Origin: a bacterium
Lineage (GTDB): Bacteria; Elusimicrobiota; Elusimicrobia; Elusimicrobiales; UBA9959
NCBI GenBank assembly: GCA_021811405.1
Contig: JAJZOZ010000002.1
Span: 1 to 59,978, forward strand
Direction of reading: 5' to 3'
DNA: 59,978 bases
In this document: piece after piece, positions 40,801 to 51,252 of the stretch
Layout of the letters: each line of letters begins with the position of its first letter
Numbering within the stretch: position 1 is the first letter of the stretch
The notes under the pieces: generated by a model
Told to the model about the DNA's origin: nothing
The model's database searches: none
Seen by the model: only the letters and a program-made list of their open reading frames with translations
Translations under genes and position numbers: made by a program

Positions 40801-43800
40801 CGGAGATGTTCGCCGCGTCGGTCCAGTCCAGCAGGTACGGGGCGTAATTGCCGGTGTGGGTGGAGGCGCGCAGCTGGTAGCGCAGCAGGCCGGACTCCTG
40901 GCCCGGGTCGTGGAAGTCGACGTTGTAGAGGCGGCCGTTGGAGGACTGGTAATACGTGGCCCCGGCCTCCAGGCTGACGGCGTACGGCGGCGTGGTGTCC
41001 TTGCGCACGTAGAAGACGTCGTTGGCCGAAGCGGAGAGGCCCGCCTGGTTATAGGCCCGCACGGAGACGTAGCCCGTGGTCCAGCTCTGCAGCGCGGCGA
41101 AGTCCACCGGCCAGTTGGCCGTGTAGGAGGGCTGGCCGGCCGGGCTGGAAACTATGTCCGTCCAGTCCTTGAGCAGCAGCCCCGCCTGGGCGGGCAGGCC
41201 GGATATCCTGTACTGGGCGGTGGTCAGCAGCGAGCCCGGGTCGGCGAAGTCTATGTTATAGACCGTCCCGGCCGAGGCGCGCCAGATGTTGTCGCCGCCC
41301 TGCAGGTCGGTGATCACCGGCGGGCTGGTGTCCTTTCTGACGTAGAAGACGTCCTCCACGGTCATGCTGGTCGAGTTGACGTTCCAAAGCCGCACGGAGA
41401 TGTAGTTCGTGGTCTCCTTCAGCGAGTCGAAGAAAGGCTGCGGCAGGGACCAGTCGGTGTAATAGTAGGTGGCGTTTATGTCCAGCACCTTGGCCCAGTC
41501 CGCGCTGAGCTCGCCGGTGCGGCCGGGCTGCGTCCAGGCCTGCACCGAGAAGGAGCTGAGGTTCAGCGCGGCGTTGTTGCTGAAGAAGTCCACGTTGTAA
41601 GTCCCGTTATTGGCGGTGCGCCAGACGGCGTCGCCGGCCTGGTTGATGGCGAGCCCCATCGGGAAGCTGGAGCGGAAGAGCTTGAAGGCGTCCGCGTAGT
41701 CCGAGGTACCGCCGGCCAGGTCGGTCACGCGCAGCGAGAAATAATTGGTGGCCGGCAACTGGGCCAGGGAATAGAAGTCCGCCCCCCAGTTCTGCGTGTA
41801 ATACGTAGCTCCGGAGAGCGTGGCGATATTGGTCCAGTCCTTGACCAGAGCGCCGGTACCGCCGGGGCCTTCGGTCACGCGGTACTGCGGCGCGGCTATG
41901 CCCGAGCCGCCGGCGTCGAAGAAGTCCACGTCGAAGACGGCGCCAGGGTTGGCGAGGTAGGGACCGTAGCCGTCGGCCGGAGTGCTGACTATGACCATGT
42001 AGGGCGGCACTGTGTCCTTCAGCACGTGGAAGGCGTCGTTCACCTGCGCCGGATTGCCGGCGTTATCGTAGACGCGCACGCTGACGTAGCCGGTGGTACC
42101 GCTGGGTATGGCCGCGAAATCCACGGGCCAGTCCGTAGTGTAGGAGGAAAGGCCGCCGGGGGAGTAGACTATGCCGGTCCAGTCCTTGAGCACCGTGCCG
42201 CCCTGGGCCGGCAGCGAGGTTACGCGGTACTGCGCGGTGGTCAGGCCGGAGGTAAGGTCCCCGAAGTCCACGTTGTACAGGGTGCCACCCGTCCCGCGCC
42301 AGACGTCGTCCCCGGCCTGGTTGTCGGTGATGACCGGCGAGCCGTTGTCCTTCAGCACGCGGAAGGCGTCCTGCAGCGCGGCGGAATGGCCCAGCTGGTC
42401 GGTGACCGTGACGCTTATGTAATTGGTCCCCTGCGCCAGCAGGCTGAAGTCGACGCTCCAGGGAACGGAATAGGCCGCTCCCGAAACGCCGGGGATGGCC
42501 GTCAGCGGGACCGCGTTGACGCCGGTGAGTCCGGGCCCGGTCCAGGCTTCGTAGGCCGCCGAAGCGAGGCCGGCGCCGGCGTCGCCGAAGCCCACGGTGT
42601 AGGCGGTGCCGCCGAAGCGGCGCCAGGCGTCGTCTCCGGCCTGGCCGTTGGCTATAACGGGGGCGGAAGTGTCCTTAAGCACGTAGAAGGCGTCGGTAAG
42701 CGAGACAGTGGAGCCGGCGTGGTCGAACACCCGTACCGAGATATAGCTGGTGCCGGACGGCAGCAGGTTCCAGAAGGCGGAGGGCAGCTGCCAGTCGGCG
42801 GCATAGGAGGCCGCGTTGATGCCGGTCGCGGCGTCGGTCCAGTCGGCCGCCAGCGTCCCGGTCTGCCCCGGGCCGGTAGTCGCCTTCACCTGGAAGCCGG
42901 AGAGCAGCGAGCCTCCCTCGTCGGCGAAGTCCACGTTATAGAGGCCGGAGACGGCGCGCCAGGAGGAGTCACCGGGCTGGTTGTCCGCTATGGACGGCGG
43001 CGAGGTGTCCTTCAGGACGTAGAAGACGTCGTTGTTCGCCTGCTGGTTGCCTGCGTTGTCCGTGACGCGGGCTGAAACGTAGGAGATGCCGGCCGGCAGC
43101 GCGTCCCACTGCGCCTGCGCCAGCTTCCAGCCGGCGGGGTAGGAGGCCGAATTTATGGCGGACTGCTGCGCCGCCCAGTCCTGCACGAGCGTCCCCGTCA
43201 GGGCGGGGCCGGTCGTTATCCTCAGCTCGAAGCTCGAGAGCAGCGAGCCGCCGGCGTCCGCGAATCCCACGTCGTAGGCCGTGCCGGAGGAACTGCGCCA
43301 GGAATCGTCCCCGAACTGGTTGTCAGCGATGGTCGGCAGCGTCTTGTCCTTGCTGATATAGAAGGCGTCCGCGTAGGTGGAGGAATTGCCGGCGAGATCC
43401 GTGAACCGCAGCGAGACGTAGTTGGTGGCCGCGCCCTCGGCCAGGGAAGTGAAGTCCACGGGCCAGTCGGCGATATACGAGGCTGCGCCCAGCGGCGCGG
43501 TGACTATGGGGCTCCAGGTCTTGCGCTGCGTGCCCTTCTGCCCAGGCTCCGACCAGACCGAGTATTCTATCGCGTTCAGCAGCGAGCCGCCGGTGTCGTA
43601 GAAGTCCACGTTGTAGAGCTTGCCGGGGTCCTTCTGCCACTGGGCGTCGCCGCCGGCCATGCCGTCCTGGGCGGAGGGCGCGGTGGTGTCCTTCAGCACG
43701 TAGAAGACGTCGTCCAGGGAGGTGGTGGTGCCGGCCACGTCCCAGACCCGCACGGAGATGTAGTTATAGCCCTCGGCCAGGGCGGGCCAGGAGGAGGCGG

Positions 43801-46800
43801 AAACGCCCCACGGCGCGGCGTAGGAATTATCGTACGGCGTGCCCGAGGAGATGAAAGTCCAGTCCAGCCGCCTGGTACCGGTCTGGCCGGGGCCGGTCCA
43901 GGCCGTGTACTGTATGCTGTCTATTCCGGAGCCGCCGGTATCCGCGAAGGAGACGTTATAAACGCTGCCGGGGTTGGCGTTGCGCCAGGCGGCGTCGCCG
44001 GACTGGGAGTTGGTTATCGCCAGCGGCACGGTGTCCTTGAGCACGTAGAACAGGCTGTCCGCCGAGGCGGTGGAGTTGCCCACGTTGTCGTAGGCGCGCA
44101 CGCTGACGTAGGCGGTGGTGCCGCTGGGGATGGCGTTCCAGGCCGCGGCCGGCAGGGCCCACGGCGAGGAATAGGAGGAGGAGTTGATGCCGGAGGCGAT
44201 GGTGGTCCAGTCGTAGAGCGTGGTGCCGGTCTGCGAGGGCCCGGTGGTCAGCTTTACCTGGAAATAGGAGAGCAGCGAGCCGCCGGCGTCGTTGAAGAAG
44301 ACGCTGTAGAGGCCGCCGTTGGCGTTGCGCCACTTCGTATCCCCGGCCTGGGAGTCGTTTATCGTAGGGGTGGAGAGGTCCACCAGCAGCGAGCGGTAGG
44401 CGCTGAAGGCGGAATAGTTGCCGGCCGTGTCGCTGGAGGCAGCGCGCCAGTAATAGGTGCTGCCGGCCACCAGCGGCAGGGAGGCCGCGGAGACCGCCGG
44501 CTGGCTGGAGTACGAGATGGTGGTGAAATCGGTGGAGGTGGCCAGCTGCAGCAGGTAGTTGGTGACGCCGGAGCCGGAGCCGTCGGAAGAATCCCCCCAG
44601 TCGAAAGAGAGGGCCGCGCCGTTGGTCTTGTAGCCGTCGGCCGGGGTCAGGAGCGAAGGCACCGAGGGTGCGGTGGTGTCCTTGAGCACTTTGAAGGCGT
44701 CTGTCACCGTGGCCGTATTGCCGGCCACGTCGTAGAACTCCACCGTGATATAGTTGGTGCTGTCGCCGCCCAGCGAGGCGAAGGCGACCTGCCAGGGCGT
44801 AGTGTAGGAAGGGCCCGAGACCCCCGTGATGGCTACGGAGGAGACCTTGAGCGCCCCGTTCTGGCCGGGGCCGGTCCAGGCGCTGTAAATGGCGCCGTTC
44901 AGCCAGGACCCGGCGGAGTCGGCGAACCTGAAGTCGTAAGCCGTCCCGGCGGCCTTGCGCCAGGTCAGGTCCCCGCCGGCGACGTTGTTGGTATACGCGG
45001 GAGGCGTGGTGTCCTTGAGCACCCTGAAGGCGTCGGTCACCGTGGTGGTGTTGCCGGCTATGTCGTAGACCTCCACCGTTATGTAGTTGGTGGCGTCCCC
45101 GCCCAGTCCCGCGAAGTTCAGCGCCCAGTCCGCGGTATACGAAGCGCCGCCCACGCCGGCCAGCGCCGTGGTGGAGAAGAGCACCGCCCCGGCCCCGCCG
45201 GCAGCCGCGCGGGCCGCGTAGACGGCCCCGGCCAGTTTGGAATAAGGGTCGGCGAAGTCCACGTTGTAGTTCCGGCCGGCCTTGCGCCAGGTCAGGTCCC
45301 CGCCGGCCTCGCCGTTGGTCACTACCGGCGGCACGGTATCCTTGAAGACCTTGAAAGCGTCCGACAGCGTCGCCGTGTTGGTGGAGTAGTCTATGGCCCT
45401 TACCGAGATATAGTTGGTGGTCCAGCTCTGCAGGCTGGTCCAGAAGGCGGCGGGCAGGGCCCAGTCTGTGGTGTAATAGGTGGCATTTATCGTCAGCGGC
45501 AGGTCCACCCAGCCGCCGCCGAAGTCGGTGCCGGTCTGCGCGGGCCCGGAGGTGGCCCGCACCTGCAGCTTCGAGATCAGCGAGCCCCCGTCGTCGTTGA
45601 AGTCCACGTCGTAAAGGCCGCTGTTCGTATTGCGCCAGACCTGGTCGCCGGTGCCCATGTTGGAGGTTATGACCGGCGTCGAGAGGTCCACCCGGAAGGC
45701 GCGCGTGGAGGAATAGACGCCGGTGTTCCCGGCGTTGTCCAGCGACCGCACGCGCCAGTAATAGTAGTTCTGGGCCAGCGCTGCCGGCTGCGCCATCGAG
45801 GCCAGCGGGCTGGAGCTGTAGGTGACGGTCGCGAAGTCCGCGGAAGTGGCCACCTGCAGCTCGTAGTTCTTCAGGCCGGAGCCGTCTATGTCGGTCACGT
45901 CCTCCCAGTCCAGCAGCGGGGGGCTGGCGTTCAGGTTCACCCGGTCGACCGGGACTATGGCCGCCAGGGCCGGCGCCGGAGGGCTGGAATAGTCCACGCC
46001 GAAGTCCGGATTGCCGCCCTTGTTCACCCAGCGCCCGCGGCCGCCGTCCCCGAAACCCGCGGCCCGCCAATGATAGACGGTACCGGAGACCAGCCCCGAG
46101 ACCACCGCGTAGCTGGAGGCCGCCACGGTATTATAGTTGAAGACCGGGCCGGTGGAAAGGGCGCTCTCGTCGAAAGCCGCGGCGTTCGGCTTCACCTCCG
46201 CCACCAGCGCTATATTGTCCACGTTCATCGAGCTGGCCAGCACGCCCTCGAAGCGCAGCTCCCGCGCGTTGGTCCAGGCGCCCTGGGCGAGGGCCGCGCC
46301 GTTGGCCTTCTGCACGAGCGACTCCGGCAGCTTGGGGAAGGGCACGAAGCTGTAATTTATCGCCGCGCGGCCTCCCATCAGGCCGCGGGAAGTGCTGAGC
46401 GCGTAGTTGGCGGTGACCACGGCGGGGAAGGTACTGAACTGCACCAGGTTCTGGTAGAACTGGTTTACCGTGCAGTCCTCGGTGGTCGTGCGGTGAAAGG
46501 CGGTTTCCGGAGCGTTGCCGTTGAAATCCACCGTGGTATTGAAGTCCTGCGTGGTGCCGCTGTTGTTCAGGAAGTCGGTATAGGTATAGGCCTCGCGCAG
46601 CGTCTTGGTACCCTCCGTTTCCGGGTACCAGGCCCCGAATGGGAAAGTATCGCTGGGTACCGTGCCGTTGGTATCGTTGCCGGCCAGCACCTCGTAATCG
46701 TCCGTATGGGCCGCGCCGTTGGTATAATCGTACGTTATTATCAGTTCCATGCCGTGCGCGCCGGTGGCGCTGTTGGCCGCGTAGATGGTTGTTCCCACCT

Positions 46801-48052
46801 GGAGGCCGTTGGTCCAGCCCGCCGAAATGGCCGCCGAGGTCATGTCGTGGAAGAACTGATAGCCGGAGATCTGCGCGAACTGCGACTGTACCGCGTAGGA
46901 GCGCTGCGGCACTGCTACTCCGCCGATGGAGGAATCCACCGGCATGGCGGAATTGGTGGAGGAATCGTAGGAACCCACTATGCGCGCGTATGCGCGCCTG
47001 ATCGTTATCCCCTCCTCGCGCAGGAACACCTGCGCGCCCAGTACGGCGTCCGTGACCGCGGCCAGACCCTGGCCTATGAAGGTCTTGGCCGTCTTGGTCT
47101 TGACCGCCGAGTTGCTGTCAGCGATATAGGTAAGCACCACCTCGCCGCCCAGCGTATTGACGGGGCTCTGGACCGTCACCACGTTCAACGTCTGCACGGT
47201 GCCGGTGGAGAAGCCGGGCATGATGTCGGAATTGGACAGGTATCTGAACTCGTAGGAATCGCGCCGGGAACCGTCCATGTTCATGGTGGGCTCGGCTGCA
47301 TAGCCGCTGATCCCCGCGTAAACAGTGCCGTCGGCGGTGGAGCCGCCGCTCTGCCTGAAGCCGCGCAGCTCCACCCACTGCTGCTGCAGGCTGTAGCCGG
47401 AATCCGCTATCCCGGCCAGGTACTGCAGGGTCCTGGCGCCGGCCGGCTGCTGGGCGGTATAGGCCGCTATGCCGTTGACATAGTCCGAATAGACCGGGAA
47501 ACGCACCGTCTTGGCCACCTGCGGGGACTGGTCGTCGTACTCGTAGGTGACGTACAGCGTCATGCTGTGCATGTTGCTGGCCGGCCCGGTGATGGCGACC
47601 CCGGCGGTGAACTGCGCGCCGGCGGCCAGGTTGGCCAGTTGCGCGCTGATGACGGAGGTCACGTCCGCCCTGGCGAAAAGGCGTATGGACTCGCCTGACT
47701 GGGCCGTATACTGGACCGAGGTGAAGCGCGCGGTATTAGCGGCCGCTCCGGCGTCGAAGTAAATGACCAGCGGGTTGATATTGGTGGCGCTGACCGCTAT
47801 GCCCTCGTAATGCAGCCAGGCGCTGCGTATGACCTTGCCGTTCTCCGGCAGCTTTATGGTCCTGGAAGTGAAGGTCGTCTTGGAGCCGGAAGTCTTGTCG
47901 GTATTCGAGTAATAGCCGCCGAAATTGTACTCGACGGTCTTTATCTGCGTATCGGCCGCGGCCGGGGACGCGCAGAGCGCGGCGCAGAGCAGCAGCAGCG
48001 GCCGCAAAGCGGCCCGCCACGCTCTTCCGTTATATCCAGCGGCCTTCGGCAT
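19844..48052 (-). CDS. Giant secreted multi-repeat surface protein (~9,402 aa)
   Basis: A single uninterrupted frame (track 19844..48538). It is trimmed to ATG 48052 because the upstream 486 nt overlap the well-supported Rrf2 gene in another frame. MPKAAGYNGRAWRAALRPLLLLCAALCASPAAADTQ is a good Sec signal peptide. Domain content is listed in the sub-features. Confidence 0.9.
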   Translation of the reverse strand: MPKAAGYNGRAWRAALRPLLLLCAALCASPAAADTQIKTVEYNFGGYYSNTDKTSGSKTTFTSRTIKLPENGKVIRSAWLHYEGIAVSATNINPLVIYFDAGAAANTARFTSVQYTAQSGESIRLFARADVTSVISAQLANLAAGAQFTAGVAITGPASNMHSMTLYVTYEYDDQSPQVAKTVRFPVYSDYVNGIAAYTAQQPAGARTLQYLAGIADSGYSLQQQWVELRGFRQSGGSTADGTVYAGISGYAAEPTMNMDGSRRDSYEFRYLSNSDIMPGFSTGTVQTLNVVTVQSPVNTLGGEVVLTYIADSNSAVKTKTAKTFIGQGLAAVTDAVLGAQVFLREEGITIRRAYARIVGSYDSSTNSAMPVDSSIGGVAVPQRSYAVQSQFAQISGYQFFHDMTSAAISAGWTNGLQVGTTIYAANSATGAHGMELIITYDYTNGAAHTDDYEVLAGNDTNGTVPSDTFPFGAWYPETEGTKTLREAYTYTDFLNNSGTTQDFNTTVDFNGNAPETAFHRTTTEDCTVNQFYQNLVQFSTFPAVVTANYALSTSRGLMGGRAAINYSFVPFPKLPESLVQKANGAALAQGAWTNARELRFEGVLASSMNVDNIALVAEVKPNAAAFDESALSTGPVFNYNTVAASSYAVVSGLVSGTVYHWRAAGFGDGGRGRWVNKGGNPDFGVDYSSPPAPALAAIVPVDRVNLNASPPLLDWEDVTDIDGSGLKNYELQVATSADFATVTYSSSPLASMAQPAALAQNYYYWRVRSLDNAGNTGVYSSTRAFRVDLSTPVITSNMGTGDQVWRNTNSGLYDVDFNDDGGSLISKLQVRATSGPAQTGTDFGGGWVDLPLTINATYYTTDWALPAAFWTSLQSWTTNYISVRAIDYSTNTATLSDAFKVFKDTVPPVVTNGEAGGDLTWRKAGRNYNVDFADPYSKLAGAVYAARAAAGGAGAVLFSTTALAGVGGASYTADWALNFAGLGGDATNYITVEVYDIAGNTTTVTDAFRVLKDTTPPAYTNNVAGGDLTWRKAAGTAYDFRFADSAGSWLNGAIYSAWTGPGQNGALKVSSVAITGVSGPSYTTPWQVAFASLGGDSTNYITVEFYDVAGNTATVTDAFKVLKDTTAPSVPSLLTPADGYKTNGAALSFDWGDSSDGSGSGVTNYLLQLATSTDFTTISYSSQPAVSAASLPLVAGSTYYWRAASSDTAGNYSAFSAYRSLLVDLSTPTINDSQAGDTKWRNANGGLYSVFFNDAGGSLLSYFQVKLTTGPSQTGTTLYDWTTIASGINSSSYSSPWALPAAAWNAIPSGTTAYVSVRAYDNVGNSTASADSLFYVLKDTVPLAITNSQSGDAAWRNANPGSVYNVSFADTGGSGIDSIQYTAWTGPGQTGTRRLDWTFISSGTPYDNSYAAPWGVSASSWPALAEGYNYISVRVWDVAGTTTSLDDVFYVLKDTTAPSAQDGMAGGDAQWQKDPGKLYNVDFYDTGGSLLNAIEYSVWSEPGQKGTQRKTWSPIVTAPLGAASYIADWPVDFTSLAEGAATNYVSLRFTDLAGNSSTYADAFYISKDKTLPTIADNQFGDDSWRSSSGTAYDVGFADAGGSLLSSFELRITTGPALTGTLVQDWAAQQSAINSASYPAGWKLAQAQWDALPAGISYVSARVTDNAGNQQANNDVFYVLKDTSPPSIADNQPGDSSWRAVSGLYNVDFADEGGSLLSGFQVKATTGPGQTGTLAADWTDAATGINAASYAADWQLPSAFWNLLPSGTSYISVRVFDHAGSTVSLTDAFYVLKDTSAPVIANGQAGDDAWRRFGGTAYTVGFGDAGAGLASAAYEAWTGPGLTGVNAVPLTAIPGVSGAAYSVPWSVDFSLLAQGTNYISVTVTDQLGHSAALQDAFRVLKDNGSPVITDNQAGDDVWRGTGGTLYNVDFGDLTSGLTTAQYRVTSLPAQGGTVLKDWTGIVYSPGGLSSYTTDWPVDFAAIPSGTTGYVSVRVYDNAGNPAQVNDAFHVLKDTVPPYMVIVSTPADGYGPYLANPGAVFDVDFFDAGGSGIAAPQYRVTEGPGGTGALVKDWTNIATLSGATYYTQNWGADFYSLAQLPATNYFSLRVTDLAGGTSDYADAFKLFRSSFPMGLAINQAGDAVWRTANNGTYNVDFFSNNAALNLSSFSVQAWTQPGRTGELSADWAKVLDINATYYYTDWSLPQPFFDSLKETTNYISVRLWNVNSTSMTVEDVFYVRKDTSPPVITDLQGGDNIWRASAGTVYNIDFADPGSLLTTAQYRISGLPAQAGLLLKDWTDIVSSPAGQPSYTANWPVDFAALQSWTTGYVSVRAYNQAGLSASANDVFYVRKDTTPPYAVSLEAGATYYQSSNGRLYNVDFHDPGQESGLLRYQLRASTHTGNYAPYLLDWTDAANISGGNYASDWPLPAAIWDSLDSGVTAYISVRVFDAALQSSDTYNAFSVWKDTAPPYVTVNQPGDDTWRLTDPGAVYDVDFGDLGSGATTAQYRLYSGPGGTGTLLKDWTDIFGAPAGTPLYSANWAVDFAAAREGANYVGVRVFDRGGLATAAQDAFYVLKDTTPPVIADNQAGDYAWRGSPGTLYDVDFFDRASGLSAIEYRVSTAPALGYPVSDWLPANILTGYPTYYTDNWSVSFSTLAENTTNYISVRAYDRLGLASVSSDVFKVFKDVTLPAIADNQPGDDLWRNSSGTLYGVSFADAGGSLLSRFQTLLMSGPAQTGAQIAGWTDILSGIGSASHSAPWALPESLWQPLPEGQSYVSVRVYDNAGNAREISDVFYVKKDTTPPSIADYQGGDGVWRAANTAVYDVRFADTGGSLLEGARVKLTEGPAQTGAVIADWTPVLSNINAASYSTPWPLTAALWNAIQSGVTAYVSVDVADGAASTTTLSDAFYVLKDTVPPTAADLQSGDAAWRNSNAGAYAVHFADEGGSLLSKVQVKASSAPAGAGAHAFGYTDLLTGIGSASYPSDWQLTPALWSLLLPGTNYISARVYDNAGAFSDYADVFYILKDTQPPSGTVTPPAFSGALGFNVPYSASDAGPSDVQYVKLYYTMATGVPYSWTQFGTTFSASPIAFTAPAGGTAGFRLVVYDKAGNRDETDPPTSDTPPEAATVVDLTPPSVVNNQTGDAVWRNAGGTLYNVDFSGGGGSLLSAAQYKATSSPAQGGTVLKDWTYIAQNINAANYSADWAVDFAALKSSFNYVSVRVWNQAGTTTTANDVFYVKKDTEAPAFADNQAGDDVWRQADPGAVYNVGFNDPYSLLSRVQYSASSVPGGASGNIKGWTDIASGISAASYSQSWGVDFLSLTSGVTAYISARAYDLAGNVAVSTDAFYVLKDTVPPASADNQAGDDVWRASNSGLYNVDFADAGGSRLLKAQYGAWTSTGMAGAGLVPWTDISPSPAWLTSYTADWQLSAGAFTLLQSGTSYVSVRVMDNAGSTTTLADVFYVRKDVAGPAISGNQAGDDAWRSANTGVYDVDFADQLSGLASFEVKVTTGLNQSGTVLADWTPVSALSGASYTANWALPPAVFAAMREGANQVSVRALDSAGNGSALSDAFYVRKDTSGPVITDNQAGDDVWRASNSGLYNVDFADDKSLAAKFQLKAMTGAGQTGTLLFDWTDAVAGINAASYTADWSIPQAQWDLLAPGTSYISVRAFDMAGSTSSLADVFYVRKDTAPAPAIGALAGVTGAEGVIALSWTAPDDGGAAVSSYLVKFSSYIVIAAGNFDTADTYTQSWTPVGPGSPESYNLTGLAPNTAYHIAVKSVDRAGNISAVSNTATASAGPDTTPPGAITDLAAQQGGFDGQIALSWTAVGDNGVSLGTATAYQVRYRTDQAVTSALLWDGANIYAQAWVPQYPGVPEAQGIDNLTPGVTYYWAVKAVDEVANTSPLSNSPSAPAKVGEGTPGMFMFGNGTGNTPYVRKWTPPSFAGVQTSLAANAAAGAVARHVIVRASPLRNEKLAGILFSDGTLQIQRYNGLNGQWTNEWSTTTIGATDSAYRGFDIAYEQNTGRAVVLYQGAAVGTLYYNIYDGSSWTGAQTLAAGDPAAAAVWVRLEARPGSSELMAAFSNLSSNQLTAARWTGSLWSDVTTIVNNLGLTTYQNFDVAWESLSGHCLVSYGGTAVTGKAITWLWNGVSWAQFTTTEFTFIGADGNSNWLRLASDPNSNYIGAASIDSVRDWNAAIWDGTGWFPSATENASVARNGNQSRTIDAAWTRDGKFVVASAHRSLPTVLYSYWSQAGGWATTLAAAYSVGNWSNVVYGVELEPDTKSNNLMLTGWSSSRDLRGAAWSGSVFTLDPTPHTTTISDRNYMPAMLAIDRHDIVPPTVTDNQPGDDAWRGTNTGVYNIDAADTGGSHLRGIQTRVYSGPNQTGALLEGWTTQVSTSGVDVYTADWPLSAGTWAAMKEGYNYVTVRSTDGSDNTSLAPITDAFYVKKDTTPPTLPALSLPADGAFLKDPAVFFDWTDSSDLASGVAAYELQVATSADFAAPAYSAAPSVSGSTSAALASGMYYWRVRAVDLVSNYSAYTSTRAVYVDTAPPVAVDAQAGDDVWRNASGTLYAVHFNDAGGSLLDTVSYAVYSGPGRTGAQLVPFSGGVIASGIAAPAYNSDWALSPTNWALLPNGTSYVSVQSSDRAGNSASSDDVFYIRKDVSAPVITDNQPGDDVWRAVPGALFNVDFADAGGSQLAGFQLKITSGPNQTGTVLSDWFYRATAVNAASYAQDFDLGISTWLLLPEGTSYISARAWDNAGNSSTLTDAFYVRKDTSPPSAVAGVSPADGKVTNSASPLLDWTDAADAGSGISGYEVYVATSQDFAVNYASAATAGSQYPASLPSGLFYWRARARDNAGNYGAYGSTFSVRVDTAPPAVADAQAGDDAWRSAGGTLYNVSFADAGGSHIDSLEYSAWSGPGRTGVNHIPWTVITSTPLGSDSYSSTWGVDFSLLGDGTNYVSVRVWDAAGSTVTAQDVFYVKKDAYSPAIVDNQPGDDVWRAAPGALFNVDFQDTGASLLSKFQLKITSGPNQTGTVLSDWFDRSAAINSASYTQDFDLGISTWLLLPEGTSYISARVWDNAGNSASLSDVFYVRKDTTPPSITDSQAGDDVWRPVNSGSYAVSFADTGGSRLSYFQVKATTGPAQTGTITADWTTVASGLAAGSYPGGWTLPQAVFDSLASGLNYLSVRVYDGAGLSAALSDAFYVRKSTAAPRILDNQAGDDVWRNAPGTLYDVDFEDSGASGLSAAQYKVTSAPGQGGTLVKDWTYIASGINAPSYTADWAVDFAALAEGVTNYVSVRVWDVAGATTAVSDVFYVRKDVTAPSVANNQLGDAAWRSSSGTVYNVDFADAGGSGLSRFEVKVTTGPGLTGTLVADWYPQAASINSNSYTADWALPASTFTALPEGPGMVSVRVYDNAGNSAELDDAFYVMKDTTPPSAPAAVSPADLAPRATLSPLLDWTDSSDGSSGIAGYELRAATSASFSPVAYSAAPAASQQAAALPSGATWYWQARARDNAGNYSGYSAYYRVLADTVAPVVTDSQPGETNWRNSDPGAVYNVPFSDDMTGLDTMQYSAWTGPGQTGSNSVPWTVISSGTPRLAYPGPWSVNFSLLAAGTNYISARAWDAAGSTATRSDVFNVLKDTSAPAMLDNQAGDDVWRAANPGAVYDVDFLDLYSGVATIQYRITSQPAQGGTLLADWTDVASGLAVSTYSANWGLSAASWSLLPEGASYVTVRAYDRLAQSSLLADVFYVRKDTTPPTASDNQADIALARSQADVNAMNVDFHDTGGSLLSKAQYAVWTQPGRTGGEVVTWTDIAAGINAADYLADWPVNYMALPNLAVSYVSARVYDNAGGVSYYNDVFSVYKEGSGPLIINGQAGDNAWRAANTGLYNVDFQAESGFNLDYFQVTAATSAAAPSYLVAWTSAAYNIGSTVYTADWSLPQAVFDALAPGRNYVSLAVFDLLPSSSTLGNAFYVLKDTVPPSLGLNQAGDAAWQNAAGKTYNVDFFDPLSGLSTAQYRITTLPAGAGAVLKDWTDIAYPTGAASYTADWPVDFSALQEWTTGFVSVRAFDELAQSSASADAFYVLKDTTPPAAVSQSSPADGALFSTGAVSFAWTASSDLRSGVSAYELQLSTSQEFAQVSASSVTAAASASVSGLAGGAYFWRVRAGDAAGNYAAWSSTRSFTAATSSPTITNGQASPTPWYLSDPGAVFNVSFQDLVSGLTTGQYRITAAPAEGGTLVKDWTDIFSTPSGSAGYSAAWPVDFAALREGQNYVSVRAFNRVDFSSKAVDAFVIRKDTSAPAIADNQAGDTTWRRASGAVYDVDFSDLGSGLATAQYRITSAPAGGGTLLKNWTGIFSSTGIASYTANWGVDFFALAEGATNYVSVRAFDVLGSSRELADVFYVLKDVTNPAILNNQPADNLWHASDPGAVYNVGFSDLGGSRLDRFQTRITSGPAGTGTLAQDWTDRVLAINATYYNQLWGPDFAVLGEGQNYVSVRVYDGAGNSAQQADVFVVRKDTTPPSVQNNQAGDYVWRGANTGVYNVDFADAGGSGVDHFQVKATTDAAGAGTPLFDWTTLVSAINAQSYTADWQLTSQLWDLLGPGTSYISVRVFDTAGSSAALAGAFHIRKDTRTVTLTDNQLGDDVWRSSGNALYDVDAQALGGSPLDRFEVRSSTLPGNLGPFTSGWTAAVSGLNAYTYTADWGLPAPVFDAMLSGQSNYVSVRAYNQAGLFAELADVFYVKKDTVAPQVTNNIAGGDLSWRNGPGALYNVDFADAGGSLLSGFELRVSTVPGAGPYLFDWTPIQTGIGAASYTTDFAIPPSSFSLLAEGATNYVSLSAYDVAGNTSTVADAFRVFKDTTPPSLADNQAGDSYWRNSSGTVYNIDLADTGGSNLSKVQARASYNAGTLGPWYFDWSDAVTGINAASYTADWPLPQTLWDLLGEGTSYISVRVWDNAQSSATFGFQPFFILKDTTPPAFVNGEAGGDAAWRSAGRAYNLDFADPMSGLAALEYSASTAPASADGGVKGWTAIAGPSGALYSADWPLDFAALREGVTNYVSVRAWDVAGSTAVLKDAFYVKKDTTPPTAQNLQSGEFSWRNSNGGVYSVHFADTGGSLVSKFQLKASTGPGGTGIQAFDWTDNITGIGLASYPVDWPLSLGVWNSLYDSATNYVSVMVFDGAGSTYTITDAFRVLKDTTPPAVTGNQAGDGVWRTAAGTLYDVDFADYGSLLSSAAYSAWTGPGLTGAQVKGWTQLFSSRTVLSTSDWAVDFAALAEGYNYVSVRAWDVAGNMGAASDVFYVRKDTSPPSVADLQDGDTTWYKANPGPVFDVDFSDSGIGVSTAAYEAWTGPGRTGAQVAPSTPIFSGAPLPAYTQNWGVYGADWALLAPGTNYITVTAWDALGHSSTSVDVFYILKDTVPPSAITTLTAVPSAGQAGEGGIDASWTAPGDSDLTGSASYYMIRYKTGSAFTGQADFDAAAVYVSTLVPKAAGSPEGLVLSGFTAGATYYLAVEAVDKAGNSGPLSNPTSSYAGTDTTPPGAIADLAAVMADFQGQISLTWTAPGEGVKGVANAGTATSYIVRYAPFLITGANFASPAVSTYTQTWSPAAYGLPEIRVLDGLTPGATYSIAVKAVDEAGNVGPISNVPVSSATPAGAAAGMIVYGSGASNIPVYRNWTPDIWGAQGGSLVTGATVRWAVLKSVPVVANAKIGGFLASDNSLKLLKWDGLASAWSDITPSPAPAPGGSATRKFDLAPESLTGRMLAVYNNGTLGTVSYAVWSATASVWAGAPAPLVLTGLTGDVNWVRLKAMPGTDRVLLMALDANGRLTAAVWTGSAWTSVQNLTTAASMATTECFDGGWESQSGNAVALWGAGTATAYKIWRSASSTWDAATPAGPAVGSTSVYWLRVAADPTTNRLGASIMTVSPGWYVSIWQSTLGTEAWSASPAADTSMSSNLGRITDAAWESQSGRFLAAAVDNIGNFDTQFDYITWSGGTWTPASPSVTTANTNTTFANDIRLLALYPDPNTNKITALGMDISGNLKTTLWGGTSWAGTAASSNFQHTNTVSDFSYEPAGIAFDRQDPVPPTVIDNQAGDDSWRNSRVFYNIDATDSGGSHLASVQTRVLSQPAGGGALVQDWTDQVSGINADSYTADWQFAQGTWDLLPQGISYVTVRARDSAGNSSPVITDAFYVKKDTAPPTVTNNLAAGYDGAWRNAAQGAVYDVDFADTGGSGLSSLEYSASSGPNRTGIQTLGWTVISSGTLGSIYTSNWALNFSLLGHGTNYISVRAMDNASSTTTLVDAFRILKDTQPPAAITGLAAAPGPVRGSVSLSWTAPGDDGAVTDNTGGYYTVKLATFQIITDALFSAASTYAQAWAPAAAGQPEQRVLYGLDVGKTYYFAVKTTDKANNVSPLSNQASSPPQTANLYINEVYAAGATAAEDWVELFNNTASTITLTGWKLVYDQGSIDLPGLETTVWTGTSVDTVNVNGFFAAAPSLDLNGAQSYHLILKDSGGNVVDRVQWPALQSGRSFARVTDGNADYFDADPTPTKGYANAITTDPVKINEVAYGALADQFIELYNTGASTPALAGYYLRGSYNGRFRFTRKIYARSYALIDASSLSDEALPYASVFGASGLNAAGDFAALENAAGQTVDRVTWQSGANYSLRNYKSALVSAAAWAPANASGSIGRSPSEGSDTGSNAADFAASASATPASRNNGAGQGAANTLAYPAASQILPRRFPLRLTLGADSSAGTGNYLVLTRTGGAADNYSPHLYRLADIGFAPASLAAQSTSQLGISFYDQDGRGLSDGAAYKLVLNTDNGAVSAPPVVRAGVTYDAAVHSVSAAPTAPLRLGEGYSGSMVAIRVDDTSLSGRNSVALASVTVRLLDPGLVPLNTAQARSLFSGVSLVKDSAGGTSGLYESGLDTQVTASLPNSGITLDASGTLLLPVPPAAAAWTPAASTAAYFVVFTAAQYASTQTPNAFRVSFDPSTDLVLTDVPSAEPQAPAAGAAVQTSSTVIIVSAKPPAGTFWPFDAGTQAGVTAPVDYYTGGLVQSAVYVPGLDGTLRGLRLDGTSKWDFLTFPLSSVKTSPMAREESGGVYLYFADVAGDIYKIRDNDASSQQIWKRPLGVSVVSNPIDSSAKLYFGAADNRVYCLNKADGSDCLGWTYDAGFTAAISGTLALDDRTPGVNASWIGLEDGKVVRFLTASGAISSWFQTGAAIKSSPFADAAYLGGNNLYITSTDGKLYARTSANLTTQPSGWADFPSGSPIYTSPFKDLDTGKYVYFGNDAGRFYKVDAASGTEIMSFQAGGPIRSSPVVIPGTWLGLPAGEDYAYFGCDDGYIYAVNVNTGQLRTGWPVPTGGPVRADPVIDTGSLTLIVGSSDGKTYVLSIGP
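19847..20900 (-). other. C-terminal PQQ/BamB-like beta-propeller domain of the giant protein (approximate bounds)
   Basis: Repeated blade motifs: GDIYKIRD, NRVYCLNKADGS, GKVVRFLTASG, GKLYARTS, GRFYKVDAASGTEI, GYIYAVNVNTGQLRTGW, GKTYVLS. Confidence 0.7.
21900..22760 (-). other. Two tandem lamin-tail domains (LTD) in the giant protein (approximate bounds)
   Basis: LYINEVYAAGATAAEDWVELFNNTASTITLTGWKL...GNVVDRVQW and VKINEVAYGALADQFIELYNTGASTPALAGYYL...GQTVDRVTW match the LTD pattern (INE..EWIELYN...L.GW.L....D.V.). Confidence 0.7.
23790..25060 (-). other. W-rich propeller-like insert 2 (~420 aa) of the giant protein (approximate bounds)
   Basis: GMIVYGSGASNIPVYRNW...FDRQDPVPPTV. It is paralogous to insert 1 and is preceded by two FN3-like domains (25090..25780). 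Confidence 0.55.
32750..33075 (-). repeat. Recent intragenic duplicate, copy 1 (offset 966 bp from copy 2)
   Basis: Shares exact runs with 33716..34041. One example is GGAGGTGCCCTCCGGCAGCAGCAGCCAGGTGGAGATGCCGAGGTCGAAATCCTGCG at 32828..32883, matching 33794..33849. Another is a ~42-nt run, GAACCAGTCCGAGAGCACCGTGCCGGTCTGGTTGGGGCCGGA. Confidence 0.8.
33716..34041 (-). repeat. Recent intragenic duplicate, copy 2
   Basis: See copy 1. The encoded modules (..FQLKITSGPNQTGTVLSDWF.R..A.N.ASY.QDFDLGISTWLLLPEGTSYISAR.WDNAGNS..) are about 85% identical. Other module pairs are clearly more diverged by eye (not quantified). Confidence 0.8.
35050..36295 (-). other. W-rich propeller-like insert 1 (~415 aa) of the giant protein (approximate bounds)
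   Basis: GMFMFGNGTGNTPYVRKW...IDRHDIVPPTV. It has recurring ..A(A/V)W.G..W.. strands roughly every 55-60 aa. It is preceded by two FN3-like domains (36330..36980). Confidence 0.55.
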
Positions 48053-48063: not shown

Positions 48064-48474
48064 TCAGTCCTCCGACGTTCCCTCGCGCGCGCGCCTTTCC
48101 TCTTCCCGCATCATCTCCACTATGTCCTGCACCGTAAGCCCCACCAGCCAGTGGTTGACCTCGGCGCGCAGGGTCTCGTACAGCTTGTTGGAAACCTGCT
48201 CCCGCTCCGCTTTCGGCGCCCCGTTGAAAGTGAAGGCCTCCATCAGCTGCCAGACGCTGATGCCGTCGAGGTCCTTGCGCAGGCGGTAACCTTTGCCCTT
48301 CTGGGACTCGACCATGCCGGCGTGCACCAGCGCCTGCAGCACCTTGTTGCAGTACGGCGCGGGCAGGCCCTGGAAGCGGGCAATATCGGCCACCTGGTTC
48401 CACTGCCCGCCGTTGTTCTGCCCCAGGTAATGCAGGCAGGACAGTCCGTAGGCTAAAGTGCGGTTCATCCTCAT
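48064..48474 (-). CDS. Rrf2-family transcriptional regulator (no Fe-S Cys triad)
   Basis: 136 aa. MRMNRTLAYGLSCLHYLGQ...IARFQGLPAPYCNKVLQALVHAGMVESQKGKGYRL is a typical Rrf2 winged helix. No three-Cys cluster-ligand motif is seen around residues 90-105. GGAG lies 7 nt upstream of ATG 48474. The stop is 11 nt upstream of the giant gene start. Confidence 0.9.
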   Translation of the reverse strand: MRMNRTLAYGLSCLHYLGQNNGGQWNQVADIARFQGLPAPYCNKVLQALVHAGMVESQKGKGYRLRKDLDGISVWQLMEAFTFNGAPKAEREQVSNKLYETLRAEVNHWLVGLTVQDIVEMMREEERRAREGTSED

Positions 48475-48666: not shown

Positions 48667-49701
48667 TTATACACCGGCCCCGCGCCGCATAATAGCCGCC
48701 ATTTCGCAGGCCGCGCTATTAGGGGCAAGGACGTCGTCCTCCTCCAGCAGGCTTATGCCCGGACAGAGGCTGCAATATTCCCTGTCGCGGCATTTGACGC
48801 AGCTTTTCTGGTCGGCCGCGGAAAGCCGGCGCCATTTCTTCAGCCAGGGGGATCCGCGCCAGATGGAGGAGAAGCGGCTCCGCGCGAGGTTCCCCAGCCT
48901 TACCGGCAGCTGCAGACAGGGATAAAGCCAGCCGGAAGGGTCCACCGCGCAGACGTTGCGGCCCGCGCCGCAGATAAAATCGTCGGCTCCGGGCCCCGCC
49001 GCGGCCTCCGCGGTGGACGGGGGAGGAGGGACCTTACTGACCGCCCGCGCCAGGGCAGGGCCGGAGAGCCGGAAGGCGGAGGCGCCGGGGTGGCCGTCGT
49101 TCGCCGGGGCTATCACCGGGTCGAACGAGACAGCGAAGCCTTCCGCCGAGGAGAGGCGGGTCAGCCAGCCGGCCTCCTCCGCGTTCAGGGTCATCAGCGG
49201 CGACTTCATCCTGACCCGCACCCCGGCTTTTCGCAGCAGCCTGGCCGCGGCCAGACTGCGGCGGAAAGAGCCCTTCAGCCCGGTCACGCGGTCATGCAAC
49301 TCCGGGCGGCCATAGAAACTTATCCCGAAGGAGGATATCCCGGCTTCCTTAAGCTCACCGGCCAGGGCCGGGGTCAGGCCCAGGCCGGTGGAGAACACGC
49401 TGACGTCGAACCTGAGGGAGGCGGCATGGCGGCAGAGTTCCGCCAGGTCCTCGCGCAGCAGCGGCTCCCCCCCGGTGAATGTCAGATAAAGGGCTCCGGC
49501 CCGGGCCAGGTCCGAAATGATGCTCTTCCATACCGCCGCGGACAGCTCCCGCGGCGCCCTGGCGCGGCCGCGCGTTTCCGGCAGGTAGCAATGGCGGCAG
49601 GAAAGCGGACAGCGGCGGGTGAGCTCCGCCGTAGCCGAGACGGGGATATTGCGCTCCAGCGTCAGGCGGTTAAGCCTGGCGGATGGCAGGCGGTCAGCCA
49701 T
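48667..49701 (-). CDS. Radical SAM/SPASM-domain peptide-modifying enzyme
   Basis: 344 aa. CPLSCRHC (CX3CX2C), the SPASM segment CGAGRNVCAVDPSGWLYPC, and terminal CVKCRDREYCSLC. Confidence 0.9.
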   Translation of the reverse strand: MADRLPSARLNRLTLERNIPVSATAELTRRCPLSCRHCYLPETRGRARAPRELSAAVWKSIISDLARAGALYLTFTGGEPLLREDLAELCRHAASLRFDVSVFSTGLGLTPALAGELKEAGISSFGISFYGRPELHDRVTGLKGSFRRSLAAARLLRKAGVRVRMKSPLMTLNAEEAGWLTRLSSAEGFAVSFDPVIAPANDGHPGASAFRLSGPALARAVSKVPPPPSTAEAAAGPGADDFICGAGRNVCAVDPSGWLYPCLQLPVRLGNLARSRFSSIWRGSPWLKKWRRLSAADQKSCVKCRDREYCSLCPGISLLEEDDVLAPNSAACEMAAIMRRGAGV

Positions 49702-50023
49702 GGGAAAGAAAAAGGCGGGAGAGAACGCGCCTGGTCAGGGAATAGGCAAGGCCGGCCCGGCCGCGCGAGAGCGGGCCGCCGGAGACGGCCGTGCCGCTGA
49801 TATCACTGAACGGGACGAAATGCCTGTCCAGGCGGCCGGCGTCGTCGGCCAGCCACGCCCCTTTTTCAGTGACGGACAGCACCCGGTGCAGCAATCTGGC
49901 GCCCTGGAACAGGTAAACGGCGCAGTCTCCGGGGCCCGGCCTGTCGTCGCTCAGCAGCACCAGCTCGCCGGGCCTGAATACCGGCAGCATGCTGGAGCCT
50001 TCCAGGCTGAAGCAGGCAGGCAT
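49694..50023 (-). CDS. Mini S24/S26-family peptidase-like protein (109 aa)
   Basis: Track ORF trimmed to ATG 50023 (MPACFSLEGSSMLPVFRPGELVLL...). GSSMLP resembles the catalytic Ser box and LLHRVL sits where S26 has (K/H)RV. The stop overlaps the radical SAM start by 8 nt. The start lies 2 nt after the precursor stop. Confidence 0.6.
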   Translation of the reverse strand: MPACFSLEGSSMLPVFRPGELVLLSDDRPGPGDCAVYLFQGARLLHRVLSVTEKGAWLADDAGRLDRHFVPFSDISGTAVSGGPLSRGRAGLAYSLTRRVLSRLFLSHG

Positions 50024-50025
50024 CC

Positions 50026-50160
50026 TCAGGAGAACTTCTTGAGGGTCTTGCAGGCCAGCTGGCTGATGGGGCCGCTCGTGCATTTGCCGCAGGCCAGCGC
50101 GGCCTTCTCGAAGACCTTCTCGGTCTTGATGGAGGGCTTTTCGTATTTTTTCTTTTTCAT
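50026..50160 (-). CDS. Unannotated 44-aa candidate RiPP precursor peptide
   Basis: My translation is MKKKKYEKPSIKTEKVFEKAALACGKCTSGPISQLACKTLKKFS*. AGGA lies about 8 nt upstream. It is below the size cut-off of the ORF track. It is flanked by PqqD (19 nt upstream) and the peptidase-like gene (2 nt downstream). Confidence 0.6.
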   Translation of the reverse strand: MKKKKYEKPSIKTEKVFEKAALACGKCTSGPISQLACKTLKKFS

Positions 50161-50179: not shown

Positions 50180-50452
50180 TCACGCGGTCTTTTTTAAGAG
50201 GCCGCAGTCTATCAATTCCTTTATAAAGTCCCGGGAGTCCGCGCGGGCCGCGTCCCGGCCCACCTCGAACTTCCCGGTAAGGGCCGCCACGATGCCGTCC
50301 TCGTCCTGGCCGGCCGCCAGGCACTCCCAGATGACGGCCGCCGTGCCGTTCAGCTCGTGCAGCCGGGCGGAGGCGGCATCCACTACGAACAGCTCCTCGC
50401 CCATGCGCCTGAAGGCCAGGTCCTTCCGCATATTTACCGCTTTGTCCGTCAT
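50180..50452 (-). CDS. PqqD-family peptide chaperone (RiPP recognition element)
   Basis: 90 aa with PqqD-like LFVVDAASARLHELNGTAAVIWECL. The start overlaps the kinase stop (ATGA). Confidence 0.85.
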   Translation of the reverse strand: MTDKAVNMRKDLAFRRMGEELFVVDAASARLHELNGTAAVIWECLAAGQDEDGIVAALTGKFEVGRDAARADSRDFIKELIDCGLLKKTA

Positions 50453-51252
50453 ATCAGCTCCAGGAAAGCGGCGTCCCGCTTCGCGAATTCCAGACGTTTC
50501 GGCCTTGCGGCCTCCAGCAGGCCGCAGGCATTACTCAGCGCCAGGGACGCGGCTTCCCCCCCTTTTTCGAAGTTCACCAGACAGCGCAGCAGCAGCTTCA
50601 GGGCCTCGCCGCCGCCGCAACTATGCAGCGAGTGGCTGCGCGCCTTGGCCAGGATGTAGACCCCCCCCAGAGGCCAGGCGCCGGGCCTGCCGTCGGCCCG
50701 CATCTCGCCCCAGAAAGGCGAGCCGTGTACCGCCCAGCCGCGCTTGCCGGGCCGCAGCAGGTTTATCTCGTCGCTTATCACTTCGGCCCCGCCGGCGGCA
50801 GCGGCCAGCCTGGCGAGGGTGGACTTGCCTGCCCCGGACTTGCCGAGGAACACGTACGCCCGGCCGTTCTTCAGCAGGCCGGCCGAATGCAGCATCAGGC
50901 CTCCGGAACGGAGCAGCAGCGAGCTCAGCAGAGAGCGCAGGAAAGCGTCCAGGCACTGGGCGTCGGACGCCGCGGCCAGGCGGCCTTTCCCGGTCCGCAG
51001 GTCCAGCCCGGCGCGGAAATCCCCGCGCTTCAGCGTCAGGGTGGTCCCCGCAAGGGCCACCGCGGGCCTGAACGGCAGGTCTCTCCTCTGGACGGACGAG
51101 ACCTCGAACTCGCGGCAGGCCCCGACGGGGCGGGAGAAGGCGCCGTAGCGGCGCCTCAGCGACGAAACGATGCCTTCCTCGTCAGGCCCAAAAGAGAATC
51201 CCAGACCGGCGATCCTCAGCCCCAGACGGGGCGTCACAGCCCCGGGGGCCAT
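50449..51252 (-). CDS. HprK-related (HPr kinase C-terminal-domain-like) kinase
   Basis: 267 aa. LMLHSAGLLKNGRAYVFLGKSGAGKSTLARL is the P-loop in an HprK_C-like context. There is no N-terminal HprK domain. The start overlaps the end of the upstream PilX-like gene by 19 nt. Confidence 0.78.
   Translation of the reverse strand: MAPGAVTPRLGLRIAGLGFSFGPDEEGIVSSLRRRYGAFSRPVGACREFEVSSVQRRDLPFRPAVALAGTTLTLKRGDFRAGLDLRTGKGRLAAASDAQCLDAFLRSLLSSLLLRSGGLMLHSAGLLKNGRAYVFLGKSGAGKSTLARLAAAAGGAEVISDEINLLRPGKRGWAVHGSPFWGEMRADGRPGAWPLGGVYILAKARSHSLHSCGGGEALKLLLRCLVNFEKGGEAASLALSNACGLLEAARPKRLEFAKRDAAFLELI

Follow-up and report, generated by a model that had tools for sequence, protein, structure and literature searches.

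In this 59,978-nucleotide stretch of bacterial DNA (contig JAJZOZ010000002.1 of assembly GCA_021811405.1, lineage Elusimicrobiota; the whole stretch is called the window below), a 44-codon open reading frame (ORF) on the minus strand at 50026..50160 very probably encodes, as far as sequence comparison can tell, the precursor of a ribosomally synthesised and post-translationally modified peptide (RiPP) that is served by the enzymes of neighbouring genes. We think it likely that these same-strand neighbours also carry out its maturation, and we rate the cassette as a widespread RiPP system that would depend on a RiPP recognition element (RRE) and a radical S-adenosylmethionine (SAM) enzyme, together with a kinase and an S26-like leader peptidase. 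The earlier note on this DNA, made from the letters alone, had picked out the same ORF as the likely precursor, and this proposal is now strongly supported by the conserved reading frame and by the PqqD and radical SAM/SPASM genes around it. In order of transcription, all on the minus strand, the cassette consists of genes for the kinase-like protein, the PqqD homologue, the peptide, the S26-like peptidase and the radical SAM enzyme:

50449..51252, minus strand: predicted ScmC-family P-loop phosphotransferase like HprK and phosphoenolpyruvate carboxykinase (PEPCK), 267 amino acids (PF27840, fold and motif)
50180..50452, minus strand: PqqD-family peptide chaperone (RRE), 90 amino acids (Pfam PqqD, 1.2e-14)
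50026..50160, minus strand: probable precursor peptide gene, 44 amino acids and a TGA stop (ORF translation and homologues)
50092-50160, minus strand: predicted leader, residues 1-23, with Y6-x-x-P9-x-I11 and A21-L22-A23
50029-50091, minus strand: predicted core CGKCTSGPISQLACKTLKKFS, residues 24-44, the leader/core boundary being a predicted one
49694..50023, minus strand: small soluble S26-like (Sec11/archaeal-type) serine peptidase, 109 amino acids (Ser and His boxes)
48667..49701, minus strand: radical SAM/SPASM enzyme, 344 amino acids (Pfam Radical_SAM 9.7e-23, SPASM 4.1e-7)

A short gene under purifying selection

The ORF translates as MKKKKYEKPSIKTEKVFEKAALACGKCTSGPISQLACKTLKKFS. An AGGA stands 6 nucleotides 5′ of its ATG, and its TGA is followed by GG and then by the ATG of the next gene, which is read as TGAGGATG. 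Its strand, its place between the PqqD gene and the peptidase-like gene, the AGGA and the gap of 2 nucleotides from the stop to the next ATG are all as the earlier note had described them. The cysteine spacing of C-x2-C-x10-C given there was one residue too long: the three cysteines are C24, C27 and C37, a spacing of C-x2-C-x9-C.

Across 45 unique sequences of the gene, 15611 differences fall at the third codon position, against 3847 and 4264 at the other two; the nonsynonymous (pN) and synonymous (pS) values are 0.115 and 0.665, giving a pN/pS of 0.17. This frame alone out of the six is free of stops in all 45 sequences, and it has the highest synonymous fraction of the six (0.68). Because of the low pN/pS, the sole stop-free frame and the presence of homologues in 71 genomes, we conclude that the 44-codon ORF is a real gene under purifying selection; the conserved frame and strand are the ones in which the earlier note had read it. 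Several public assemblies call the same ORF a ‘hypothetical protein’, with no family name. NCBIfam gave no match for the window peptide or for nine diverse relatives, Pfam gave none for the window peptide, no Rfam family matches positions 48000-52000, and no second copy of the peptide was found in the window.

The peptide family and its hallmarks

Among 5.8 billion proteins searched, there were 80 clusters (at 90% identity) of peptides of 44-46 amino acids with the same architecture, a few of them with longer called N-termini, and the organism names given for these clusters are all Elusimicrobia-type or unclassified metagenome-assembled genomes (MAGs). When one genome per species was scanned, the peptide was found in 71 species-level genomes; nearly all of these are labelled Elusimicrobiota, including Endomicrobia, the exceptions by bin label being two Armatimonadota bins, one Ignavibacteria and one Planctomycetota. 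The leader of this Elusimicrobia type contains a near-invariant E-K-V-F-E-T-A-A-L-A stretch. Residue 19 (codon at 50104-50106) is Thr in at least 90% of close relatives and in about 80% of the wider superfamily; in the window peptide and its 100%-identical counterpart at locus L004 it is Lys, which turns FET into FEK.

The wider superfamily is large. An exhaustive HMMER profile search of 1.84 billion representatives (E<=0.001) yielded 430 clusters at 50% identity, in which the commoner type is longer, about 59 amino acids, and has two cysteines only (e.g. ...KKPYQKPAFRHERVFETMALACGKISPTQSQCRFNRKTS). With this type as the query, a word-indexed profile search returned at least 6719 clusters at 90% identity; in the best 120 of the 6719, the Y..P of the leader, CGK and a terminal C-x6-S are present in 120/120. 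The motif shared throughout the superfamily is [FI]-E-T-x-A-L-x-C-G-K. Position by position, 149 superfamily representatives (numbered from the first Cys as 0, or from the C-terminal end) gave these frequencies:

-18: Y, 96%
-15: P, 96%
-10: E, 95%
-7: F, 89%
-6: E, 95%
-5: T, 78% (the Thr of FET)
-3: A, 90%
-2: L, 97%
0: C, 100%
+1: G, 93%
+2: K, 99%
-8 from the C-terminal end: C, 89%
-3 from the C-terminal end: K or R, 73%
-1 from the C-terminal end: S, 99% (S or T, 100%)

Of 150 superfamily representatives, 148 end in Ser and 2 in Thr, and the last residue is Ser in 80/80 Elusimicrobia-type clusters and 72/72 species-level loci. The C-x6-S ending is kept in 80/80 close clusters, 71/72 species-level loci and 130/144 superfamily representatives. 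The only other position with Ser or Thr in more than half of the superfamily is that of the FET Thr, at 80%, and the window peptide has Lys there. The middle cysteine (CGKC) occurs in about a third of superfamily representatives and is thus subfamily-specific. The general hallmarks are therefore the first Cys, the G-K after it, the last Cys and the terminal Ser, rather than the pattern C-x2-C-x9-C. Of the two features that the earlier note had proposed to look for beside homologous PqqD/radical SAM pairs, the terminal Ser is kept and the three-cysteine spacing is not general.

One MAG, NC_groundwater_1548, carries two cassettes (L040, peptide at 2568-2708, and L063, at 590-718), and the two peptide cores differ: ...CGKCQTGPTNQTACKTLRKLS and ...CGKCQSSVTKQSACTSLKKNS.

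Conservation of the cassette

The earlier note would have given up its proposal had no homologous small ORF occurred in syntenic cassettes; the homologues do sit in such cassettes. Searches of the loci with tblastn and iterated profiles showed two gene orders. Type A is that of the window (kinase-like, PqqD, peptide, S26-like, radical SAM), and type B, found mainly in Endomicrobia-labelled MAGs, runs kinase-like, PqqD, radical SAM, peptide, S26-like. Peptide and S26-like genes are adjacent in both, and the peptidase gene stands directly 3′ of the peptide in essentially all loci. Of 41 well-flanked loci (at least 3.5 kb on both sides), 39 have PqqD, 39 the S26-like gene, 37 the radical SAM gene and 34 the kinase-like gene; 31 have all four.

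Seven distant loci were also examined. In five of these, S24-like, ScmC and radical SAM/SPASM genes lie beside the peptide or a few kb from it, and PqqD was called in four of the five; the remaining two are orphan copies of the peptide. Since the enzymes of the distant loci are 29-35% identical to those of the window, the five-gene module, beyond the peptide alone, is conserved across distant lineages. A single protein of 151 amino acids from the distant branch, P0323, joins a PqqD-like domain directly to a family peptide, as a real fusion or as a read-through gene call, and shows the same PqqD-peptide adjacency there.

The enzymes of the cassette

The PqqD homologue has as its top NCBIfam matches two lasso-type PqqD families, at 1.1e-11 and under their cut-off. 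The kinase-like protein carries PF27840 (ScmC) in precomputed annotation, as do 120/120 of its listed homologues; our own Pfam scan did not return this family. With the P-loop region only aligned, it scored 29.4 bits against TIGR04249 (ScmC; cut-off 125), 30.7 bits against TIGR04352 and 25 against TIGR04355 (HprK-related; cut-off 200 for each), so that all three scores stay below threshold; membership of the HPr-rel-A family (TIGR04352) was rejected on this score.

An AlphaFold2 model of the kinase-like protein, built with 57 homologues, has a predicted local distance difference test score of 91.1 and a predicted template modelling (TM) score of 0.89. Every one of the top 50 Foldseek matches of the model in the PDB is a PEP carboxykinase (E down to 6.4e-8, with a TM of about 0.5 over the query), and HprK/P is not among the 50 listed; HprK/P is classed in the same fold superfamily as the PEP carboxykinases. 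Pfam PEPCK_ATP is matched by 3/15 members of the kinase family, and comparison with the PDB by sequence, single or as a profile, gave P-loop matches and weak PEPCK matches only. The model thus points to a kinase-like protein with a PEPCK/HprK-like P-loop fold. Residues H122, G137, G140, G142, K143, S144, D161 and E162 do not vary across 15 diverse and 57 close homologues and form the motif H-x14-G-x2-G-x-G-K-S-x17-D-E. The lasso-peptide kinase BsfK has the corresponding motif at H148, G163, G166, G168, K169, S170, D186 and D187 (PMC10368454); the spacing in the window protein is the same except for one extra residue before the acidic pair, of which the second member is Glu.

The radical SAM enzyme has C31-x3-C35-x2-C38 and seven SPASM cysteines (C244, C262, C301, C304, C310, C313 and C332), all kept in 69 homologues. 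Its nearest solved structures by sequence are SkfB (5.7e-20) and PqqE (3e-14), and its best scores against curated families (NirJ2, GeoRSP, PqqE and MftC) reach a quarter to a third of the cut-offs.

The S26-like peptidase has two boxes, G-x-S-M-x-P and H-R-[VI], which together with a DD motif are kept in about all of 69 homologues; in four of them Cys replaces the Ser of the box, plausibly as a swap of nucleophile. A profile of the family matches SEC11A/SEC11C (E 1.7e-7) with the Ser box, His box and DD motif aligned to SEC11A, and the catalytic Ser and His of SEC11 reportedly lie within those boxes in the structure of the signal peptidase complex. Pfam Peptidase_S24 is matched by 19/19 family members tested, and the score against TIGR02228 is 17.2 bits, below the cut-off of 51.85. 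From its first residue to the Ser box there are 10 residues, and its N-terminus lacks a hydrophobic segment that could anchor it in the membrane. Because this membrane anchor is missing, the peptidase appears from its sequence to be a soluble Sec11-type catalytic core and not a signal peptidase. Searching the PDB with the single sequence was uninformative, and a single-sequence AlphaFold2 model (score 55 on the scale above) was unusable.

A proposed maturation pathway

We propose that the PqqD-type protein binds the leader of about 23 residues via Y-x-x-P-x-[ILM] and presents the peptide to the enzymes; this binding is suggested by the motif, by gene adjacency and by precedent. If cleavage is before Cys24, the Tyr stands at -18, and lasso-peptide leaders carry YxxPxL at -17 to -12 (PMC10368454). 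The earlier note had seen in the leader a segment reminiscent of the leaders of radical-SAM-modified peptides, and a leader-like motif is borne out: the conserved Y-x-x-P-x-[ILM], with its Tyr and Pro each near-universal in the superfamily, is lasso-leader-like.

The radical SAM/SPASM enzyme would then modify the core, most likely by thioether crosslinks from Cys24 and/or Cys37, a role for these cysteines to which, from sequence, we give somewhat less than even credence. The earlier note had proposed the cysteines as crosslink donors; this proposal is weakened, in that only Cys24 and Cys37 are general in the superfamily and the middle Cys is absent from about two thirds of it.

The ScmC/HprK-like kinase may phosphorylate the precursor at a Ser, for which the best candidate is the C-terminal Ser44, the only Ser or Thr conserved throughout the superfamily; we put this target forward tentatively and by analogy. 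Lasso clusters contain HprK homologues that phosphorylate the precursor; for paeninodin and pseudomycoidin the site is the C-terminal Ser (PMC6993621, PMC10368454), the residue on which PadeK and PsmK act (PMC6993621). Such lasso-peptide kinases are accelerated by the RRE (PMC10368454).

Finally, the Sec11-type peptidase, encoded 2 nucleotides downstream, could remove the leader, either at Ala23|Cys24 (after A-L-A) or at Cys24|Gly25. The first site, A21-L22-A23|C24, conforms to the Ala-x-Ala rule and does not vary among peptides of the Elusimicrobia type. The second is offered as an alternative because the residue before the first Cys varies in the wider family; a cleavage between Cys and Gly is the UmuD-type site of the related S24 peptidase family.

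Several observations weigh against this pathway, or against parts of it. Mean column identity of the peptide is 84%, in leader and core alike, which is unusual for antibiotic-type RiPPs. Every curated maturase, ScmC/D/E/F, GeoRSP and HprK-related model scores far under its cut-off, and a Shine-Dalgarno-like 4-mer core is present in only 29/69 homologous upstream regions. An Ala-x-Ala site is at odds with the wider family, where R, K, V or T may stand just before the first Cys. Some cassettes are also incomplete. The kinase gene is absent from the compact cassettes L020, L030 and L060 (within 10 kb upstream), where the terminal Ser is nevertheless kept; these consist of PqqD, peptide, S26-like and radical SAM genes amid housekeeping genes. 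L074 has peptide, S26-like and giant genes only, with no kinase, PqqD or radical SAM gene within 10 kb (the giant gene is described below). Orphan peptide genes, with none of the four enzymes in the retrieved flanks, occur at L053 8216-8374, L056 9983-10132, L078 10001-10222 and L081 10001-10177. For the terminal Ser in particular, the constant C-x6-S spacing fits a crosslink between Cys37 and Ser44 equally well, and BsfK phosphorylates Ser3 of its peptide and not the C-terminus (PMC10368454). The conservation of this residue, for which the earlier note had proposed to look, is borne out, and the link with the kinase is plausible, yet the loci that lack a kinase keep the Ser.

These points bring in an alternative for Ser44, namely that it is the acceptor of a Cys37 crosslink installed by the radical SAM enzyme, with C-x6-S forming a C-terminal macrocycle and the kinase acting elsewhere or in an accessory role. 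We consider this unlikely, yet a serious rival: the retention of C-x6-S as counted above, from the 80 close clusters to the best 120 of the distant type, and of the terminal Ser in cassettes without a kinase would suit such a ring; a fixed donor-acceptor spacing is typical of ranthipeptides and QhpC, and the nearest solved relative of the enzyme by sequence, SkfB, forms thioethers. Against the ring, the kinase gene is present in 34/41 well-flanked loci and in 5/5 distant cassettes, the interchange of Ser and Thr at the last position fits a hydroxyl-directed enzyme at least as well, and no earlier case of a thioether formed to a C-terminal Ser is known to us.

Flanking genes and a possible role at the cell surface

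The cassette stands in a longer run of minus-strand genes. From the pilin-like genes through the radical SAM gene, neighbours overlap or have a few bases between them; some 190 nucleotides then lie between the latter and the Rrf2 gene. The flanking genes are:

54371-56938, 53857-54363, 52573-53853 and 51234-52610, minus strand: four pilin-/pseudopilin-like genes, for proteins of 855, 168, 426 and 458 amino acids, respectively
48064..48474, minus strand: Rrf2-family regulator (Pfam Rrf2 1.8e-18), between the radical SAM gene and the giant gene
19844..48052, minus strand: giant secreted protein of about 9400 amino acids, with a signal peptide and a start that is probably the Met of MPKAAGYNGRAW...
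15097-19824, minus strand: a 1058-amino-acid PQQ_2 propeller/fn3 protein with a type IX secretion (T9SS) sorting domain, then a PorV-like protein

The 855- and 168-amino-acid pilin-like proteins have N_methyl prepilin motifs, and the 426- and 458-amino-acid ones, paralogues at 73% identity, have a hydrophobic N-terminus like that of PilX. About 32 loci have the same pilin-like set upstream of the cassette, with the set on the other strand in L001 and L018; the orphan peptide gene of L078 is preceded by three N_methyl pilin-like genes and a gene for a 1112-amino-acid protein. The stretch between the radical SAM and giant genes has tblastx matches in other Elusimicrobia loci, and in L003 an Rrf2 gene precedes one for a large fn3 protein.

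The giant gene lies in a single ORF of 9564 codons (19844-48538, minus strand). Its product has a conserved N-terminal domain of about 700 amino acids (IKTVEYNFGGYYS...), dozens of immunoglobulin-like repeats and a C-terminus with lamin-tail and PQQ_2/BamB-like propeller domains. A homologue of the N-terminal domain is encoded downstream of the cassette in 23 loci, and none was found in the distant branch. In L051 (10253-13117), L065 (10171-13539) and L068 (10141-13680), an S26-like domain, a hydrophobic segment and the giant N-terminal domain are all encoded in one ORF; L067 has the same arrangement with a frameshift, and in L074 the S26-like and giant genes are separate and adjacent.

The distant-branch cassettes have surroundings of their own. 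They lie amid genes for Kelch or BNR propellers. Two loci have PMT_2 glycosyltransferase genes after the radical SAM gene, and two have NTP_transf_5 nucleotidyltransferase genes no more than 5 kb away that are homologous (34% identical); neither PMT_2 nor NTP_transf_5 was found in the window or in any Elusimicrobia locus. NTP_transf_5 near the distant kinase recalls the pairing of kinase and nucleotidyltransferase in pseudomycoidin. Distant cassettes are also accompanied by paralogous secreted proteins of 440-1100 amino acids, rich in Ser, Thr and Gly and without a Pfam domain, in several copies per locus. The positions are:

L075 13870-18345; L076 5487-6686; L080 17054-18343: PMT_2/NTP_transf_5 context
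L075 4533-9958 and 15155-17188; L076 7144-9903; L079 13183-14979; L080 4945-14103 and 18374-20180: paralogous secreted proteins

Such neighbours allow another reading of the product, as a peptide-derived cofactor or a crosslinked (phosphorylated) small subunit for surface proteins and not an antibiotic. We regard this as improbable. It would agree with the conservation of the peptide from end to end across phyla, with the pilin-like set and the giant-protein homologues that flank the Elusimicrobiota cassette, and with the S26-like domain being joined to the giant protein in some genomes of the Endomicrobia type (L051, L065 and L068), while in L074 the peptide is accompanied by S26-like and giant genes only. 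The giant protein and the product of the next gene both have PQQ_2/BamB-like propellers, the neighbours of the peptide in distant loci include Kelch or BNR propellers along with paralogous secreted proteins, and the cassette shows no obvious transporter or immunity gene. However, the association is not universal: L020, L030 and L060 are four-gene cassettes amid housekeeping genes, and the distant loci lack the N-terminal domain of the giant protein. Propeller-rich surface proteins are also common in these genomes, so their proximity may be incidental, and no redox enzyme partner was identified. Were the surface-protein link true, the peptide would represent a new kind of peptide-derived factor in the cell-surface biology of poorly studied phyla, comparable as a cofactor or subunit to PQQ (pyrroloquinoline quinone) or QhpC, with new chemistry on C-G-K and C-x6-Ser.

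It is very unlikely that the ORF encodes a small, unmodified basic protein (e.g. one binding metal or nucleic acid) that is a bystander in the operon. The peptide is indeed conserved over its full length and strongly basic, and the orphan copies have no enzymes nearby; but in nearly all loci, and in two gene orders, it adjoins the S26-like gene with PqqD and radical SAM genes within a few kb, the same module recurs in distant lineages, its leader has a lasso-type RRE motif, and three cysteines cannot fill the usual four-ligand zinc site. As for a chance ORF in a GC-rich intergenic stretch, or coding in another frame, the window is about 65% G+C and has many spurious long ORFs, but this idea is refuted by the pN/pS value and the six-frame comparison of stops, with homologues in 71 genomes besides.

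Novelty and comparison with known systems

Returning to the reading that we prefer, of a RiPP precursor matured by its neighbours, we found no curated family and no paper describing the peptide or the cassette in the literature searched, which omits most subscription journals, and we know of no characterised RiPP class that combines lasso-type parts, radical SAM chemistry and a signal-peptidase-type protease. Our analysis assigns a candidate substrate to a five-gene cassette of ScmC-type kinase, PqqD, S26-like peptidase, radical SAM/SPASM enzyme and peptide, and the ScmC family would thereby gain its first substrate candidate. The conservation of C-G-K and of C-x6-Ser-COOH leads to sharp hypotheses on the chemistry of modification.

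The phosphorylated lasso peptides (paeninodin PadeA/PadeK, pseudomycoidin PsmA/PsmK/PsmN and Bradymonas BsfA/BsfK) share with the cassette a PqqD-type RRE, a leader motif of the Y-x-x-P-x-L type almost equally far from the predicted cleavage site, and the HprK-related kinase motif H...G-x2-G-x-G-K-S...D-D/E. They differ in having a B2 cysteine protease and a lasso cyclase, where the window cassette has a radical SAM/SPASM enzyme and an S26-like peptidase; neither a B2 (transglutaminase-like) protease nor a C (asparagine-synthetase-like) cyclase was found among nine neighbours or in the related loci. The core CGKCTSGPISQLACKTLKKFS is without Asp or Glu, so it offers no residue at 7-9 to close a macrolactam. 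A lasso peptide is excluded by the missing B2 and C enzymes and the missing acidic ring-closing residue. Pseudomycoidin differs further by its nucleotidyltransferase, which has no counterpart in the window or in the Elusimicrobia loci.

With the sactipeptides and ranthipeptides (SKF, subtilosin; SCIFF/thermocellin, freyrasin), the cassette has in common a short Cys-containing precursor, an RRE-dependent radical SAM enzyme with two sets of auxiliary-cluster cysteines, and a fixed spacing from Cys to possible acceptor; it differs in its two generally conserved cysteines and in the kinase and the S26-like peptidase. Curated thioether maturases were ruled out by score against cut-off (SkfB 70/300 bits, AlbA 49/850 and PapB 53/340), and for StsB and the SCIFF maturase the scores were likewise far under the curated cut-offs.

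What SynChlorMet and GeoRSP systems share with the cassette is a PqqD homologue, a radical SAM/SPASM enzyme like PqqE and a kinase-like protein, which in the window is a predicted member of the ScmC family. SynChlorMet has two radical SAM enzymes (ScmE and ScmF) against one here, and the S26-like peptidase and the peptide are additional here. SynChlorMet was rejected on the single radical SAM gene and on scores of 17.5/100 (ScmD), 92.3/400 (ScmE) and 63/400 bits (ScmF), and GeoRSP on 110/400 bits for the radical SAM enzyme and 24/100 bits for PqqD; the ScmC score of 29.4/125 bits is likewise far under its cut-off. No paper describing SynChlorMet, or ScmC together with radical SAM, was found in the literature searched, and these systems are apparently defined by curated models only.

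PqqA/D/E, mycofactocin MftA/B/C and QhpC/QhpD likewise combine a highly conserved small peptide, a chaperone of the PqqD type and an enzyme of the radical SAM/SPASM type. MftA has a functionally critical C-terminal residue, comparable to the terminal Ser, and QhpB and the PQQ enzymes are propeller proteins, comparable to the propellers encoded near the cassette. The window enzyme matches PqqE and MftC at the level of the superfamily only (109/381 and 93/265 bits), and the cassette differs from the PQQ, mycofactocin and QhpC systems in that no dehydrogenase partner was identified for it and the link to neighbouring proteins is not universal. Taken as a whole, the cassette works most like a hybrid, in which a front end like that of phosphorylated lasso peptides (leader motif, RRE and HprK-type kinase) is combined with a modifying enzyme of the sactipeptide/ranthipeptide/PqqE type and a predicted leader protease of the signal-peptidase type.

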